Shown here piece after piece: positions 2,038-11,241 of a DNA stretch of 12,303 nucleotides. Source of the stretch: a virus (lineage: Duplodnaviria; Heunggongvirae; Uroviricota; Caudoviricetes); IMG/VR virus record IMGVR_UViG_2671180673_000008; one strand, given 5' to 3'. The position numbers and the translations under genes were made by a program. A model generated the notes under the pieces. It saw nothing but the letters and a program-made list of their open reading frames with translations. It was not told the origin of the DNA and searched no databases. Each line of letters starts with the position of its first letter. Within the stretch, counting starts at the first letter, position 1.

Positions 2038-2352
2038 TTATTCTGGGAATAAGGTCTGAATATTCTTTTTTATTTTATAAAAATTGCATTCAACTCCGCT
2101 AGGCTGATTATCCTGGTATGTTTCCTTGATGCTAACGGTATTGAAGGGGAGGTTGTCCTCTGGCCATTCGGCCATCCAGTAGGCAAATGCTGGGTTGCGC
2201 TTTATGAGCGCTAGCCCAGCCAGAAAGGCCGCGCGTTGCGCGCGGCTGCGTTCGGAGGCTGGCAGGCTATCGAGGTAATTGCACGCCTCCTGTTCACTCT
2301 TGACGGCGGCGGGCTTCAGATAGAAACTTATCCGTCTGGTTGGTGTCGTCAT
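2038..2352 (-). CDS. parR: ParR-like centromere-binding adaptor (plasmid R1 ParR/StbB family), 104 aa
   Basis: From internal ATG at 2352: MTTPTRRISFYLKPAAV...LDSLPASERSRAQRAAFLAGLALI resembles R1 ParR (...TIAFKLNPDV...LDSIPQGERSRLNRAALTAGLALY) as I remember it. AAGGAG 8 nt upstream. Starts 4 nt after parM stop. The 149-aa track ORF (2038..2487) overlaps parM and is taken as an over-extension. Confidence 0.7.
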   Translation of the reverse strand: MTTPTRRISFYLKPAAVKSEQEACNYLDSLPASERSRAQRAAFLAGLALIKRNPAFAYWMAEWPEDNLPFNTVSIKETYQDNQPSGVECNFYKIKKNIQTLFPE

Positions 2353-2356
2353 TGGT

Positions 2357-3316
2357 TTACTCCTTGTCCATTGCGTACAGCCCATTAACCAGAGCAAACT
2401 GTGGCACCCCGTCCGCGATGAAAGTCGCATTAACTCCGCAGACTTCGCGGATAGCGGGTGCCACAATCTCCGCCCCTCCACCGACAACCATCACCCGCCC
2501 GTAACCCGAAAAAACCGCCAGCGCGCGGATCACGCGTTGTTTCAGTGTTTCTTCCTTTTCACGAATAACCGCCATCAGGCTGGCGTAATGCGCGTCATTG
2601 TGGATGTGCTGGCGCAGCCAGGCTTCATCATGGCGATGTTCGATAATGGTATTGGCGATGTGGTGACTGGTGCGCATACCGTTAGTGGCCATCACCGACA
2701 GTACGGCATCGGCCATCAGGGAAACGCCTACGTGTGGATCGCAAAACACCTGGCTGATACCTGCCAGTTGCCCTTGAACCTTTGCCACATCCAGCGTGGT
2801 TCCGCCTAAATCCACAATCAGCAGGGATTCAAACGGACTCATGTCAGCCAGTGCTTTAAAGCCAGCCGGAATGGATTCAGGCATAACCCGCACGTTACGG
2901 ATAGTGAATGCTTCGCCGTTCTGGTATTCCACCGGGCGCATAACGTTCGCTTTTTTGCGGTTGATGTTGGCCATGTCCGGCTGTGCGTTTGTGTCGAAAT
3001 ACTCGCTCAGTGGCAGGGTGACAACCACATCCACCTCCTGTGGCGTGATGCCTGATTTGACCAGCGCGTGATGAATGGCGATTACATTCACATCGCTGTA
3101 CTGGTATTGCGTGTCGGTCGTCTGGACAAAGCGATCGCTAACCGGATCAAAACCATAGCGCACGCCATCAAGCATGTAGTTCGCGGGCTGCATGCCACCG
3201 AACGGCGCAGACCATTCCGACTTGAAGCTGTTCGGGCTGATGGCGTTGCGGCGTTCGCCATTCTCAGTCCATGCCAGCTTGATGTTGGTGGAGCCGTCGT
3301 CGATACAAATTTTCAT
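2357..3316 (-). CDS. parM: ParM/StbA-like actin-fold partition ATPase, 319 aa
   Basis: N-terminus MKICIDDGSTNIKLAW...ISPNSFKSEW...YSDVNVIAIHHAL closely matches R1 ParM (MLVFIDDGSTNIKLQW...ISPNSFKREW...YSDVNVVAVHHAL) from memory. AAGGA RBS about 9 nt upstream of ATG at 3316. Confidence 0.8.
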   Translation of the reverse strand: MKICIDDGSTNIKLAWTENGERRNAISPNSFKSEWSAPFGGMQPANYMLDGVRYGFDPVSDRFVQTTDTQYQYSDVNVIAIHHALVKSGITPQEVDVVVTLPLSEYFDTNAQPDMANINRKKANVMRPVEYQNGEAFTIRNVRVMPESIPAGFKALADMSPFESLLIVDLGGTTLDVAKVQGQLAGISQVFCDPHVGVSLMADAVLSVMATNGMRTSHHIANTIIEHRHDEAWLRQHIHNDAHYASLMAVIREKEETLKQRVIRALAVFSGYGRVMVVGGGAEIVAPAIREVCGVNATFIADGVPQFALVNGLYAMDKE

Positions 3317-3392: not shown

Positions 3393-6215
3393 TCATATAT
3401 CGCTGCGCGTTTTTTGCTCATTTACGGGATTCGTAAGTCCCGTTTCTGTCTGTTTTTTGTTTCCACTGGTCAGGCCACCCCGCAGCAGGTCTGCTTTGCG
3501 GCTGGCGCGTTCAGTGGTTTCACTGATTCTCTGTGCGTGCTCTGCGTCGCGGATGGCGCGCAGCATGTCAGAAAGCACGGTAACGGGTGTTTTCATGGTG
3601 TTCTGGCCCTGCTGAAGTGTGGATGCCAGGCGTGCGGCGGCTTCAGGGTCTGATGCCCCCAGCTGTGCCAGATAGCTGGCGACCGGGTTATGGCGGATCT
3701 CCGTGCTGCTTACGCCATGATTACGGCTCAGGCGCTGCCAGAGCTGCGTGATTCGGCTGTCCGGGCGGGTATCCGGTTTGCGTACAATTTCAAATCCCTG
3801 CGGTGCAATGATGCTGCCGTCAACGTACAGACTGCCGCCCCGTAACAGGTGCTGCATCTGTTGTTCACCGATATGCAGGCCGAGAGATTCAGCAGACTCC
3901 CGCCATTCTTTAGCGAGTAATTCGTGGTTATCAGGCAAAGGCCGCTGCTGTTTGCGGCTCTGTGTCCAGCTCTGCATTTCATCGCTGCTGTTTTTTGCCT
4001 GTTTGTCACGAAGCGAACGCATCAGCGCCCGGCGTTCGTGTCGTTTCAGTGAGCGCATCCATTCGTTCACTTCAACGCCGTCAGGGAGCTGCGGCCACGG
4101 TGCTGGCCGTTCTTCCGGCTGTTCTGTCCCGTTGTTGTCCGTTTCCTGTACACGGGGACAGTTATTGCCACGAGTCCAAGGGGCGGCAGGGCCGCCCTGA
4201 AGGTCAAAACCATTTTCGCGGGCGCTGTCTTCCGCTTCCGGTTTACGTCTTACCAGCTTCCAGTTATCCGGATGCGTGCACACACGGGAGGATTCCCCGA
4301 TGAGTGGTGACCAGATCCCGTAAATCTGTACGCTCTGTTCGCCGTAATCGTTCAGCTCATCTGCGAGGTCGTAGGCGGTGCGAATCAGGTAGTCCTTGCG
4401 TGGAACAAGCACGCCACCCTGTTTTTCAATGTAGGTGGCAAAACACCCGGCATCGGCGGCAGCGAGTACCGCATCCATTGCATCATCTTTCAGCCGTTGC
4501 GGGCCTTCCGGATTGCGTGCCATCTGGCTGGCAAGGCGGCGCAGTTCACGCCACACCTGACGGGAGGGGATGCCAAAGAACTGGAACTGACGGACCCGGT
4601 GAAGGCGCGCCCAGCCGATGGCGCGCTCCACGCTCTCGGCCATTGATTTTCCGGTTTCGTGGTCCACGCGTGGCTTGCCCGTTTTCGGGTCGATGCCATC
4701 CACGGCGCGGCTGTCCAGGTTCTTTCCGATGTAGGTGGCGATGTAGCTGGTTGGCGTGCCTTTTGAGCCGTCGACATACTCCACCTTAAAGCGCGGAGTA
4801 ATATCATTGCCCAGCTCGTGGCGGTCTTCCTGAATGGCAATATCGCGGGTATGGGACACAATGGTGTCGATTTCTTCCGGATGTGCAAAGACCATCATAT
4901 GCCAGTGCACGGTGCCGTCATGATGAGGCTCCACCGTGCGGATGCCATACCAGCGCAGGCCGTCGCGGTTCAGTTTTTTGCGGACCGCCGCAAAAAACGT
5001 GTTAACCAGGTAATCGCTGGAGTCGCGCATTGTGGCCCCGTTCCATTTGGGATTCGGATGACCGTTCTCCGTTGTGGCGTGGTATTTTGACGGGCAGGTG
5101 ACAGTCAGAAACACCGCTTTGTCGCCACGGGCTTCGGCCAGAAGTTCCAGTCCCTTCATGGTGGCCATCATTTCTGCCTTACGGTGAACCGGGTTACTTA
5201 CTCCCGCGTAATACACTGTCTCGAGATCAATCGTGAACCCGTCTTCATTTTCCAGCATGAAACTTTTCAGGAAATCGCGTGTTTTCTCGCGCTGTGCGCG
5301 AAACTCGCTTAACGCGTCCTGGCTCAGATAGGGTGATGTTTTTCTGGAAACCAGACAGGCGGCGCGGAGTTGTTCTTCTCTCCACTCGCAACGTAACAGC
5401 CACAGTTTGCGTTTCCACCATTCCGCACAGGTCAGGCGAAGGATTGCGCCCGGCAGCAGCTCCGTGTCCGGTTCGTTCCTCCGGTCTTTGTCTGTTGTCA
5501 GTGCGTCATAATGTGGAGGCATGGCGTGCAGGTGTAACGCCATGCGGGCCAGCATCTGATACGCCTTCAGGGTTACATCCATGGTCAGCTCGCCATCGGT
5601 CGCGCCAAAGCCATCGCAGAGTTTTTCGAAGGTGCTGCTGAACATCGCCGCCGTCATGGTGGCCAGCGTCTGTATCTGGTGTTTGTTGAGCTGCGGCAGG
5701 TAAAGCAAATCGTCCAGGCGTTCGCGTCCGGCAAGGGAGCGATAACCCGGTGTCAGCCAGCGTCCGTCAGTGCTATCCAGACGTTCGAATATTTTGCGCA
5801 GGGTTCCGCGTGCATAGCGTTCCGCCTGCCAGCTCTTTTTGCCTTTCCGGCGATCGGCTTCCTGTTTTTTGCGCAGGAAGGAGAGGTGGCGAATAAGCGG
5901 ATCGCGCAGATAGGACGGCAGCAGGCGCAGCGAGGCCATGGCTTCATCCACCGCGCCACGTGCCTGTTTTCTGGCGTCTCCTGCCAGTGTGATGGTTTTG
6001 TCCTGTTTTTCCTGTGCGTCCAGGCTTTTATTAATCAGGTTGCCCAGCGGCGTGGCTGAGAACGCCGCATCAGCCATTTCCTGGCGGCGCTCGTTCTCTG
6101 CCCGGTAGGCATCCAGCCAGGAGGAAAGCGCGGATTCAGGAGCGGGGATCCCCGTTCCTTCACGCCCCACTGCGTGGCGCGGTTGTTGCCAGTCCCTGAG
6201 GTACTCTGCCGTCAT
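3393..6215 (-). CDS. rolling-circle replication initiation endonuclease, phage P2 gpA family, 940 aa
   Basis: Conserved blocks recalled from P2 A: LTVTCPSKYH, TVEPHHDGTVHWHMMVF (HUH metal-binding motif) and TSYIATYIGKN (paired catalytic tyrosines). ATG at 6215 lies 6 nt after the stop of the upstream ORF. Confidence 0.85.
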   Translation of the reverse strand: MTAEYLRDWQQPRHAVGREGTGIPAPESALSSWLDAYRAENERRQEMADAAFSATPLGNLINKSLDAQEKQDKTITLAGDARKQARGAVDEAMASLRLLPSYLRDPLIRHLSFLRKKQEADRRKGKKSWQAERYARGTLRKIFERLDSTDGRWLTPGYRSLAGRERLDDLLYLPQLNKHQIQTLATMTAAMFSSTFEKLCDGFGATDGELTMDVTLKAYQMLARMALHLHAMPPHYDALTTDKDRRNEPDTELLPGAILRLTCAEWWKRKLWLLRCEWREEQLRAACLVSRKTSPYLSQDALSEFRAQREKTRDFLKSFMLENEDGFTIDLETVYYAGVSNPVHRKAEMMATMKGLELLAEARGDKAVFLTVTCPSKYHATTENGHPNPKWNGATMRDSSDYLVNTFFAAVRKKLNRDGLRWYGIRTVEPHHDGTVHWHMMVFAHPEEIDTIVSHTRDIAIQEDRHELGNDITPRFKVEYVDGSKGTPTSYIATYIGKNLDSRAVDGIDPKTGKPRVDHETGKSMAESVERAIGWARLHRVRQFQFFGIPSRQVWRELRRLASQMARNPEGPQRLKDDAMDAVLAAADAGCFATYIEKQGGVLVPRKDYLIRTAYDLADELNDYGEQSVQIYGIWSPLIGESSRVCTHPDNWKLVRRKPEAEDSARENGFDLQGGPAAPWTRGNNCPRVQETDNNGTEQPEERPAPWPQLPDGVEVNEWMRSLKRHERRALMRSLRDKQAKNSSDEMQSWTQSRKQQRPLPDNHELLAKEWRESAESLGLHIGEQQMQHLLRGGSLYVDGSIIAPQGFEIVRKPDTRPDSRITQLWQRLSRNHGVSSTEIRHNPVASYLAQLGASDPEAAARLASTLQQGQNTMKTPVTVLSDMLRAIRDAEHAQRISETTERASRKADLLRGGLTSGNKKQTETGLTNPVNEQKTRSDI
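3418..3460. repeat. hairpin-repeat copy 2, inside the last ~22 codons of gpA
   Basis: TTTACGGGATTCGTAAGTCCCGTTTCTGTCTGTTTTTTGT. Imperfect direct repeat of copy 1, about 73 bp away, with inverted repeat ACGGGA/TCCCGT and a T-tract. Confidence 0.6.
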
Positions 6216-6221
6216 AGTGAT

Positions 6222-6587
6222 TTACTTCGTCATGCCATTCAGGGTGTCGCGGCAGACTGTAGCCAGCCGCTGAATTTCCAGCACGGTGTCTTCTGTGTCG
6301 GCATGGCGATGTGTGATGCGGATGCTGTCGGCAATCACATCGACGATTGCAGAGGATGGGCGCTGGTAAATGCCAATAACGGACGGGGTGCCACCTTCAA
6401 TGCGGTAAAGCCTGTAATTTCCCTCGTGGCTGTCAATCATGTAGCGACCATCAATAACAATCTTTCCGTCAGCGAGCTGCGGTACAGGCAGGGATTTCAG
6501 GTACATGTCATAACGATCACGCACGCGAGCGGCAAGATCACGTTCTGTATTGAGCAGGTATTCAAGAAAGTCGTTGGCGAGAATCAT
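6222..6587 (-). CDS. hypothetical early protein, 121 aa, immediately upstream of gpA
   Basis: ATG at 6587 with AGAGGA about 9 nt upstream. Stop 6 nt before gpA start. No family recognised. Confidence 0.6.
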   Translation of the reverse strand: MILANDFLEYLLNTERDLAARVRDRYDMYLKSLPVPQLADGKIVIDGRYMIDSHEGNYRLYRIEGGTPSVIGIYQRPSSAIVDVIADSIRITHRHADTEDTVLEIQRLATVCRDTLNGMTK

Positions 6588-6659
6588 TGCGGCAATCCTC
6601 TTGTTACAGATGTGCGAAGGCCTCCCGCCGCAAGGTGCAGGAAAGGCCCGGAACAGGAA

Positions 6660-6890
6660 TTAATGGAGTTTGTTTTGCTGCTGGATGAGCTGTTGAAGCT
6701 CGTGCAGATCATCCGCCAGATAGCTGAAAACAGAGGCGGAATAAATGTTTGATAGTGCGTGGCTGCGCTCATGCAGCATATTGATGTGCATGATTTGCGC
6801 GACGCGTGATGCGCGGGAAAGTCTGCGGTTGATTTCAGTCTGGATGTGACGACGCTCCGCGATAGCGCGGTGCTGTTTGCGGTTTGCCAT
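6660..6890 (-). CDS. hypothetical small basic protein, 76 aa, possibly DNA-binding
   Basis: ATG at 6890 with GGGG about 9 nt upstream. Arg/Lys-rich N-terminus (RKQHRAIAERRHIQTEINRRLSRASR). First ORF after the structured non-coding island. Confidence 0.5.
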   Translation of the reverse strand: MANRKQHRAIAERRHIQTEINRRLSRASRVAQIMHINMLHERSHALSNIYSASVFSYLADDLHELQQLIQQQNKLH

Positions 6891-7069
6891 GGTGTGGCCC
6901 CTTGTGTAGTAAGTTGTGAAAACTCACCATCCAGAGCTGCGAAACTGTGGGTGGCGAGACGTACGAGGTTCGCAGTACCGGCTACACAAGAACCCGGCCC
7001 GACCGAAGTCGGCCCCGTACGCCCCGCCATAATTCTGACGCGAAAAAAACGTGGCAATACAGTACGCAC

Positions 7070-7090
7070 AAAAAAACCGCTGGCGCGGTT
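7070..7090 (-). terminator. intrinsic terminator on the - strand inside the early gene string
   Basis: Minus-strand reading AACCGC gcca GCGGTT followed by TTTTTTT (+ strand AAAAAAACCGCTGGCGCGGTT). 6-bp GC-rich stem, 4-nt loop, 7-U tract. Confidence 0.6.
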
Positions 7091-7212
7091 GTGCGCTTGT
7101 GTAGTCAGCAGGCTGCGAAACCCGGCACCCGTTTTATGAGGTGCAGCGGAAATGTAACCTGACTGATTGCGGCATGGCAAGCGGTTTTTTTGTGTGTGCA
7201 TGCTCTGGTTTC

Positions 7213-10795: not shown

Positions 10796-10856
10796 TTGTT
10801 ATCCTCTTGCGTTGGTGCGCTTGTCGCGCCTTGTGATGGTTTGTTTTGGCTTGTAA

Positions 10857-10909
10857 AGATAACCAAAAGGTTATCTTTGTGCGAGAGGTTAATACTCAAA
10901 TGGTTATCT
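10857..10909. promoter_or_regulatory. immunity-region operator: perfect 20-bp palindrome plus an extra half-site over the repressor start codon
   Basis: AGATAACC aaaa GGTTATCT at 10857..10876. A third GGTTATCT at 10902..10909 overlaps the ATG at 10900. Confidence 0.6.
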
Positions 10910-11241
10910 TGTCAATAGACTACGCAAAAAAGTTACGTCAGATACGTAAGGCGGAAGGGTTAACACAAAAGCAGTTTGCGGATATTACTGGGTTGTCTTT
11001 GGCAACCATAAGGAATTACGAATCGGGGCAAAAGAACGCTAGAGCAAAAATCGTTGAGGCGGTTCTGCAAGTCGATCGCTTTGAAAAATACATGCTGTGG
11101 CTAATAAAAGATAAGACGCTACCTGTCGCCGGGCAGATTGCTCCGGCTCTCTCTCTTGATGGATCTATTCAGTCGGAGGGCGATCAGGTTTCAATCGGTA
11201 TTACCCAAAAATCACCCCGATCAGGCCGCAATGTTGGCTGA
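10900..11241 (+). CDS. XRE-family HTH repressor (phage C/CI-type immunity repressor), 113 aa
   Basis: HTH signature LTQKQFADITGLSLATIRNYESG. ATG at 10900 with GAGAGG upstream. The track ORF start at 10846 is a TTG codon. Located immediately upstream of int on the same strand, as in P2. Confidence 0.7.
   Translation: MVILSIDYAKKLRQIRKAEGLTQKQFADITGLSLATIRNYESGQKNARAKIVEAVLQVDRFEKYMLWLIKDKTLPVAGQIAPALSLDGSIQSEGDQVSIGITQKSPRSGRNVG

Follow-up and report, generated by a model that had tools for sequence, protein, structure and literature searches.

A probable C4-type antisense RNA immunity module in the early operon of a P88-like Escherichia coli prophage

Introduction

Here we describe an island at positions 6891 to 7212 of a 12,303-nucleotide (nt) stretch of tailed-phage DNA (IMG/VR record IMGVR_UViG_2671180673_000008), to which we refer as the window. 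The element that carries the island is a P88-like (Xuanwuvirus, P2-type) prophage of Escherichia coli, and the island, located in its early operon, is very likely to be an antisense RNA immunity module of the kind represented by c4 of phage P1 and CI of phage P4. RefSeq records no feature at all for positions 6891-7212, and in some relatives the region is entered as an ‘ash family protein’, labelled in some as a truncated pseudogene. An earlier sequence-only reading of the same DNA had described the island as non-coding, with iteron-like repeats, a GNRA-loop hairpin and a minus-strand terminator, and had proposed that it might hold a regulator-site array, an internal promoter or attenuator, or a small RNA. 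Several of these proposals are upheld by the analyses presented below, whereas others are replaced by a more specific interpretation.

Results and discussion

Two RNA genes of described families within the island

A search of the window with the covariance models of all Rfam families revealed two RNA families that match over their full length at scores above their gathering thresholds, which bears out the small RNA option. The first is isrK (RF01394), which covers all 77 model positions at 7144..7070 on the minus strand and scores 65.2 bits, the gathering score being 50. The second, C4 (RF01695), lies on the same strand at 7034..6947; its 83.2 bits exceed the gathering score of 45, and the match takes in all 87 model positions. 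For the C4 RNA, both the minimum free energy structure (-47.7 kcal/mol, z -4.5) and the centroid structure reproduce the structure of the family. When P4 was subjected to the same search, its CI RNA matched C4 with 74.9 bits and its seqA matched isrK with 60.8 bits. The parts of the module, all of which are read from the minus strand, are as follows.

7151..7180, minus strand: predicted internal promoter of the sigma-70 type, with the -35 element TTGCCA (7180..7175), an 18-nt spacer and the -10 element TACATT (7156..7151)
7070..7144, minus strand: IsrK / P4 SeqA-like small RNA (RF01394), with two 5' hairpins, a single-stranded linker and an intrinsic terminator
7113..7119, minus strand: b1 target UUCGCAG, in the loop of IsrK hairpin 2
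7096..7104, minus strand: a1 target CUACACAAG, in the IsrK linker
7068..7090, minus strand: IsrK intrinsic terminator, AACCGC-GCCA-GCGGUU followed by U7
6947..7034, minus strand: C4 / P4 CI-type antisense RNA (RF01695), tRNA-like, with a long closing stem, two hairpins and a single-stranded junction
6982..6990, minus strand: a' CUUGUGUAG, in the 12-nt loop of C4 hairpin 2
6969..6975, minus strand: b' CUGCGAA, in the single-stranded 3' junction of C4
6937..6943, minus strand: b2 target UUCGCAG, complement of b'
6909..6901, minus strand: a2 target CUACACAAG, overlapping the Shine-Dalgarno sequence AAGGGG (6903..6898) of the epsilon-like gene
6660..6890, minus strand: epsilon-like (‘derepression protein’) gene of 76 amino acids (aa), PF25738, probably controlled directly by C4

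Two weaker family assignments were not retained. The c4-a1b1 model (RF03163) gives only 20.5 bits at 7157..7105, below its gathering score of 46.7 (P4 reaches 44.1 bits), and isrK fits the same stretch better. A match to STnc410 (16 bits, E 0.8) was dismissed as chance.

The structural elements noted earlier can now be assigned to these RNAs. The hairpin CCGAC-CGAA-GTCGG is indeed present at 6999-7012, but its loop is not of the GNRA type. The transcribed minus strand reads c(UUCG)g, and this stable hairpin is the first inner hairpin of C4, followed by the second hairpin with its 12-nt loop. Likewise, the minus-strand terminator, with its stem at 7090-7075 and its U run at 7074-7068, is the 3' end of IsrK, and the terminator or attenuator option is supported. 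Fold predictions indicate that RNA made from the internal promoter keeps this terminator hairpin.

The idea of an internal promoter also gains support from comparison of sequences. By consensus scan, the -10 element ends 7 nt before position 7144, and transcription is predicted to start at about 7144, exactly where the isrK match begins. In all of 23 distinct loci the -35 element keeps its TTGC and the -10 element keeps its T, its A and its final T, while the spacer diverges. Promoter activity would be expected by analogy with PLE of P4 and PisrK of Gifsy-1 (PMC4825925, PMC10111431). Directly before C4, at 7029-7057 on the minus strand, there is another promoter-like site, in which TTGCCA and AATTAT are separated by 17 nt. 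We rejected it as a conserved element, as a distant clade has TCGTCA together with a 6-nt deletion in the spacer. Production of C4 by read-through and processing, as for STnc1160 of Gifsy-1 (PMC4825925), would fit this lack of conservation.

The gene that follows the RNAs encodes a 76-aa protein that matches the Pfam family PF25738 (‘Derepression’; E 6e-8) and shares 29% identity with the epsilon protein of P4 (BLASTP, E 4e-9). The a2 site ends 10 nt before its AUG at 6890, and in most of 86 distinct loci the equivalent site lies 9-11 nt before the start codon.

The repeats of the island as partners in antisense pairing

The repeats that first drew attention to the island are found where they had been placed. 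The 9-mer CTTGTGTAG occurs on the plus strand at 6901-6909 and 7096-7104, and its reverse complement CTACACAAG occurs at 6982-6990. Each copy has a CTGCGAA partner, represented by CTGCGAA(AC) at 6937 and 7113 and by the complement TTCGCAG at 6969-6975. The half-sites are 27 nt apart in the copy at 6901, 6 nt apart in the inverted copy and 8 nt apart in the copy at 7096, which corrects the earlier values of 26, 6 and 6 nt. These words are absent from the rest of the window on both strands. In Markov-1 shuffles, clusters in which a 9-mer appears at least three times within 250 nt are expected 0.10 times per window, and two were observed, namely the island repeat and an operator-like repeat near 10856. 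The judgement that the repeats exceed chance therefore stands. Coincidence has only the shortness of the words in its favour, and with repeats that are conserved and co-vary across dozens of loci we give it virtually no weight.

Read as RNA, the inverted copy forms a loop (a') and a junction (b') of C4, whereas the other two copies provide its complements, one pair within IsrK (a1/b1) and one pair ahead of the epsilon-like gene (a2/b2). If these are antisense partners, then a locus with a different C4 loop should carry correspondingly different targets. We surveyed 120 IMG/VR loci with a C4 core, which represent 47 different loop combinations. The DNA pattern used to find these loci demands a UUCG loop and misses P4 (CUCCGG) and the GAAA variants L128 and L129, and the sample is biased toward UUCG-type C4 RNAs for this reason. 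Among the 47 loop types, an exact complement of at least 7 nt to the locus’s own loop was present upstream for 68% (a) and 96% (b), and downstream for 79% (a) and 100% (b). With loops borrowed from other loci as a control, a complement was present in 3-7%. A profile search of genome contigs with an alignment of the epsilon-like protein yielded only 4 loci and added little diversity.

In an alignment of 23 distinct P2-type loci, a1b1 pairs with a'b' in 99.2% of cells, and 12 of the 16 pairs show compensatory changes. For a'b' with a2b2, pairing holds in 97.8% of cells and 11 of the 16 pairs are compensatory. None of 500 shuffles reached the observed values, and controls in which the elements were slid against each other gave 28-54% pairing. 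The covariation analysis that had been recommended as a check on the island thus reveals that all three copies change together as pairing partners. This is particularly evident among five P88-like relatives with near-identical backbones, where the a and b elements are swapped in all three copies together and where a and b types reassort independently of each other. A further a' type, CUUUGGUUG, is carried by locus L124. Within the P88 clade, the a/b columns are the most variable of the module, with an entropy of 0.68 compared with 0.20 elsewhere.

The sequence-only reading had favoured iteron-like repeats that are bound by protein, and such an array would place CTTGTGTAG/CTGCGAA among the DNA sites of a phage regulator, for instance the 76-aa protein, the MarR-like protein, C or Cox. 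In favour of this explanation, three bipartite copies are gathered in 220 bp where two segments of an operon adjoin, and one inverted and two direct DNA copies would also co-vary. The types of mismatch, however, distinguish between DNA and RNA. Non-Watson-Crick positions in 80 loci comprise 35 G.U, 1 A.C and 8 others. Transitions in a DNA repeat would produce G.U and A.C with equal frequency, and so the asymmetry points to selection on RNA pairing and would be meaningless for a DNA site. Moreover, the inverted copy falls on the loop and junction of an Rfam-defined antisense RNA, a2 falls on a Shine-Dalgarno sequence, the half-sites are irregularly spaced, and the neighbouring proteins open to comparison (epsilon-like, ORF121 and gpA) remain 96-100% identical while the repeat types change. 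We consider a regulator-site array very improbable and conclude, on the evidence of these alignments, that the repeats are RNA pairing sites of C4 rather than protein-binding sites.

The sites also could pair within a single molecule. The read-through RNA is predicted to fold with a1b1 paired in cis to a'b', an arrangement that resembles ‘structure A’ of PMC4825925.

The sharing of a/b types among elements was also compared. Cross-immunity between the window prophage and P4-like satellites was rejected, as no sampled satellite-type locus shares both the a and the b type, and the b type alone is shared with the satellite-like islands L128 and L129. These two islands, found in E. coli chromosomes (2807-3034), carry isrK and C4 along with genes for an integrase, a helix-turn-helix (HTH) protein, AntA/AntB, an ‘Ash’ frame of up to 355 aa and a TOPRIM/DUF927 primase. 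They are identical to the window in the first 34 nt of IsrK and in the b type (CUGCGAA/UUCGCAG), and differ from it in the a type (CCUUGUACG) and in the GAAA loop on the first C4 hairpin. Half-sites seem to have been exchanged between classes of element.

A conserved reading frame that runs through the RNA module

The description of the island as non-coding is only partly correct, as the whole RNA module is spanned by a long, conserved frame that resembles eta of P4 and corresponds to the Pfam Ash family. The frame and the two genes that follow it are listed here.

7201..6584, minus strand: eta/Ash-like frame of 205 codons, spanning IsrK, the terminator, C4, a2/b2 and, out of frame, the epsilon-like gene
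6587..6222, minus strand: open reading frame (ORF) of 121 aa, ORF121, a downstream gene expected to depend on the module
6215..3393, minus strand: replication endonuclease gpA, a downstream gene expected to depend on the module

The eta-like frame opens with the ATG at 7201, which precedes the internal promoter and follows the stop codon of the preceding gene by 11 nt. At its other end, the stop codon of the frame overlaps the ATG of the next gene in the sequence ATGA (6587-6584). In P2-type loci the ATG is kept, 8-11 nt past the stop codon of whatever gene happens to be located upstream. From -130 to +130 around the C4 core, the frame is open in 84% of 95 distinct loci, compared with 5-7% for the other two frames. 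It also remains open through 19 of 19 distinct epsilon-like genes (0 of 19 for the other alternative frame), and its stop codon overlaps the next ATG in 17 of the 19. Locus L131, from Escherichia albertii, is an exception, in that its frame is interrupted within the epsilon-like gene, at +169 from the C4 core. An AUGG is conserved at the 5' end of C4, and its AUG (7028-7030, minus strand) also lies in the eta-like frame, and read-through transcripts from the internal promoter could consequently be translated through to the ATGA at 6587-6584.

These observations invite the opposite interpretation, in which the island is the N-terminal part of a functional 205-aa Ash or regulator protein and the RNA structures are secondary. 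The frame is open and conserved, PF10554 (Phage_ASH) matches residues 16-108 at threshold (26.0 bits; window 6878-7156, minus strand), PHROGs families 995, 6928, 821, 29966 and 3960, described as transcriptional regulator or repressor, match with E values of about 1e-15, and the RefSeq name in relatives points the same way. Yet all of the family matches are confined to residues 4-112, which correspond exactly to isrK, C4 and a2b2, and they are explicable by RNA conservation for this reason. Variation among the codons is greatest at the a/b sites, which change in an RNA-complementary manner. The C-terminal half of the frame overlaps the epsilon-like gene out of frame. Within this shared stretch, substitutions are in excess at the third codon positions of epsilon, and the peptide read in the eta frame shows less conservation than the epsilon-like protein. 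In addition, the region is a truncated pseudogene according to RefSeq in certain relatives, and the immunity factor of P4 is an RNA (PMC10111431). A functional Ash protein is therefore an improbable explanation for the island. Given that the frame is kept open while substitutions favour epsilon over the eta peptide, it looks as though the eta-like frame is selected for being translatable rather than for its product.

The same reasoning has consequences for how the Ash family is understood. At the P4 locus (L003, 8329-8521), Phage_ASH matches the old ‘cI ORF’ over the CI RNA, and the C-terminal part is Icd-like (Kil); no match to the Icd-like domain of NCBIfam was detected in the 205-aa frame of the window, although P4 has one. 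A survey of P4-like satellites took PF10554 as its ‘epsilon’ marker (PMC8628076). The epsilon protein of P4 itself belongs to PF25738, and we conclude that this marker tracks the RNA module and its eta frame rather than epsilon.

An upstream arm that could oppose the terminator

Transcripts that begin upstream of the internal promoter contain one more sequence of potential importance.

7177..7197, minus strand: upstream arm ACACACAAAAAAACCGCUUGC, complementary to 7084..7064 (3' arm of the terminator plus U tract), hypothetical in its role

This arm comprises the 21 nt right after the ATG at 7201 and ends in the -35 element. Only transcripts initiated further upstream than the internal promoter contain it. 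Complementarity extends to 19 of its 21 positions (90%). Over 23 loci, 89% of cells retain the pairing; a distant clade shows two compensatory pairs, and Trabulsiella has a U.G wobble. RNA that starts upstream is predicted to fold with the arm helix formed and the terminator hairpin lost (z -3.6). The helix was seen in P2-type loci only, with none in lambdoid or P4-type loci. It could conceivably serve as a promoter-specific antiterminator or as a processing site. A kinetic objection is that the arm helix competes for the last-made arm of the terminator.

Relationship to known immunity systems

The RNA genes of the island are members of described families, and the module they form is an unannotated relative of the modules of P4, P1/P7 and Gifsy-1. 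We found no paper on this module in P88-like or other P2-type phages, in a literature whose coverage was incomplete.

The closest parallels are to P4, whose seqA/seqB/seqC layout matches that of the window (PMC4825925, PMC10111431). Both Rfam families are present in the same order and orientation, targets are located on both sides of the antisense RNA, an epsilon homologue follows immediately downstream and a replication gene lies further down the operon. In P4 the order is seqA, CI, seqC, (kil), epsilon and alpha, whereas in the window it is IsrK, C4, target sites, epsilon-like gene and replicase, and we regard the two as parallel because the same Rfam pair is joined to an epsilon homologue. 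Both elements also have a long eta-type frame that starts upstream of the internal promoter and runs through the RNA module. PMC10111431 states that eta of P4 starts upstream of PLE and is translated only from upstream (PLL) transcripts, that its translation prevents immunity-dependent termination (citing Forti et al. 1999), and that, the immunity factor being RNA, eta matters by the act of being translated. The differences are nevertheless substantial. The host of the window module is a complete P2-type phage with a C/Cox switch rather than a satellite, there is no nested gene resembling Kil or Icd, and the replicase is gpA rather than alpha. Also, it is the Shine-Dalgarno sequence belonging to the epsilon-like gene that a2 of the window occupies, this gene is overlapped out of frame by the eta-like frame, which ends on the next ATG, and the loops are CUUGUGUAG/CUGCGAA, whereas those of P4 are CCUGUGAAG/UCUCAC.

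The immI region of P1/P7 (c4-icd-ant1/2) has the same a1b1, a'b' and a2b2 layout, as reported by Citron & Schuster 1990 (cited in PMC2864571 and PMC8198154). In each case a' and b' of C4 face a1/b1 upstream and a2/b2 at a ribosome-binding site. In P1/P7, C4 controls an anti-repressor, and a change of specificity requires co-varying loops and targets. Unlike immI, the window lacks homologues of icd and Ant1/2, has an intrinsic terminator (that of IsrK) between a1b1 and C4, and places the module in a P2-type early operon before the replication gene.

The third relative is the isrK-orf45/STnc1160-anrP region of Salmonella prophage Gifsy-1, which shares with the window a full-length isrK with its terminator and, in the window, a predicted promoter. 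Its C4-like RNA starts with AUGG, which is the start of orf45, just as the AUG at 7030 of the window lies in the eta frame. The anti-repressor of Gifsy-1 is under read-through and translational coupling, and IsrK acting in trans activates this downstream gene and is itself required for spontaneous induction (PMC4825925). In contrast to Gifsy-1, the anti-repressor of the window is epsilon-like rather than AnrP, its host is P2-type rather than lambdoid, and its frame runs over the anti-repressor start to the next gene.

A proposed mode of action and its alternatives

Although the parts of the module, their complementarity and their co-variation are evident from the comparisons above, its manner of action must be borrowed from the homologues in P1/P7, P4 and Gifsy-1. 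The internal promoter would fire at about 7144 irrespective of how active the early promoter Pe is, and most of the resulting transcripts would stop at the terminator to yield IsrK. Read-through transcripts would be processed to stable C4, with ribonuclease P (RNase P) cutting the 5' end. Pairing of C4 with a2/b2 would then block translation of the epsilon-like gene, and polarity or premature termination caused by C4 would also block ORF121 and gpA. A second target for C4 would be provided by a1/b1 on IsrK, which might aid termination, as in P4, or titrate C4, as in Gifsy-1.

Transcripts from Pe may behave differently. These would be translated in the eta-like frame from the ATG at 7201, such that ribosomes cross the terminator, C4 and the target sites and stop at the ATGA (6587-6584), where translation would be coupled into ORF121 and gpA. 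We propose that Pe transcripts would be insensitive to C4 because ribosomes ride through the module in this frame. The steps that involve the eta-like frame are deduced from its conservation in window-type loci and from the eta precedent of P4. Dependence of ORF121 and gpA (3393..6587) on the module would be expected from the layout of the operon and from the P4 and P1 precedents.

Several points weigh against this account. Promoter activity, terminator efficiency, C4 processing and repression are all deduced from sequence and homologues only. The effects on downstream genes are extrapolated, given that the window has no Icd- or Kil-like target and that its replicase is gpA rather than alpha. 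When the window is considered alone, its duplex energies are only moderately better than those of shuffled sequences (3-88 of 1000 shuffles equal them). For any single epsilon-like gene, an open eta frame is not improbable (p 0.06-0.76 in synonymous shuffles), and the frame is broken in the E. albertii locus L131 and in some non-P2 loci. Finally, the precedents disagree on a1/b1, which is an aid to repression in P4 but belongs to an activating IsrK in Gifsy-1.

This last disagreement is the basis for an alternative in which the module serves mainly as an induction switch like that of Gifsy-1 rather than for immunity. Short IsrK, accumulating under some condition, would use a1/b1 to pair with either the C4 region or the read-through mRNA and would relieve the block, and the epsilon-like protein would inactivate the prophage’s own C repressor, which would give a P2-type prophage a route to induction that is independent of SOS. 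The isrK family and an anti-repressor-like gene downstream are indeed present, the role of IsrK in the spontaneous induction of Gifsy-1 is a precedent, the read-through RNA is predicted to fold with a1b1 paired to a'b' in cis, and P88 itself was obtained by induction (PMC5285337). However, the epsilon protein of P4 acts on the repressor of the helper, P4 seqA aids repression, and the module precedes a replication gene as it does in P4. An induction switch also overlaps with the immunity module rather than excluding it. We regard both the switch and the SOS-independent route it implies as possible, though with the balance of evidence somewhat against them.

A further proposal, which is tentative and in our estimation rather unlikely, extends the immunity module to a gate that is set by which promoter made the transcript, in which Pe transcripts bypass the silencing that affects internal transcripts. 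Internal transcripts would be terminated or silenced by C4, and would yield only the epsilon-like anti-repressor, and this only when IsrK outcompetes C4. Pe transcripts would carry the eta-like frame that hands ribosomes to ORF121 and gpA through the ATGA overlap, and the 21-nt arm (7197..7177) would offer them a second bypass by pairing with the 3' half of the IsrK terminator.

The prophage and its other features

The prophage is integrated in the chromosome beside dmsA, and 1400 of the 5426 complete E. coli genomes (about a quarter) contain the same stretch of DNA. On the minus strand, the island is preceded by cox, small early ORFs, a MarR-like ORF and a 99-aa ORF, and is followed by the 76-aa ORF, the 121-aa ORF, the 940-aa gpA replication endonuclease and ParM. 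The element carries gpA, Cox, a C-like repressor, an integrase and ParM, and none of the P4 satellite genes alpha, sid, delta or psu was found in the window. ORF121 was considered as a counterpart of ORF151 of P4, and this identity was dropped when comparison revealed no similarity.

Two additional observations concern regions outside the island. A ParM protein (319 aa, with both Pfam ParM domains) and a small partition or stability protein are encoded directly 3' of gpA (2038-3316, minus strand), and genes for actin-like plasmid segregation would not be expected in a P2-type prophage that is integrated in the chromosome. Furthermore, the divergent intergenic region between cox and the repressor contains a perfect palindrome, AAGATAACC-aaaa-GGTTATCTT, at 10856-10877, and a third copy of GGTTATCTT at 10902-10910 overlaps the ATG (10900) of an HTH repressor-like ORF. 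The palindrome and the third copy (10856-10910) probably form the operator of the lysis-lysogeny switch.

Implications

A region present in about a quarter of complete E. coli genomes, now left blank or named ‘ash family’, gains a regulatory function from this analysis, and it appears that the Pfam Phage_ASH family and several PHROGs ‘regulator’ families consist for the most part of translated RNA module sequence. For a P2-type phage, the module would add a layer of RNA immunity, acting over anti-repressor-like and replication genes, to the protein switch formed by C and Cox. Because the specificity loops diversify and reassort on near-identical backbones, these prophages offer a natural system for RNA-based heteroimmunity. 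If the promoter-dependent gate proves to be true, then the immunity and derepression cassette of the P4 satellite would have a close counterpart in the helper lineage, and the hypervariable a/b types would constitute an RNA heteroimmunity code that extends across helper-type phages, satellites and lambdoid phages. The module also represents a plausible evolutionary link between helper phages and P4 satellites.

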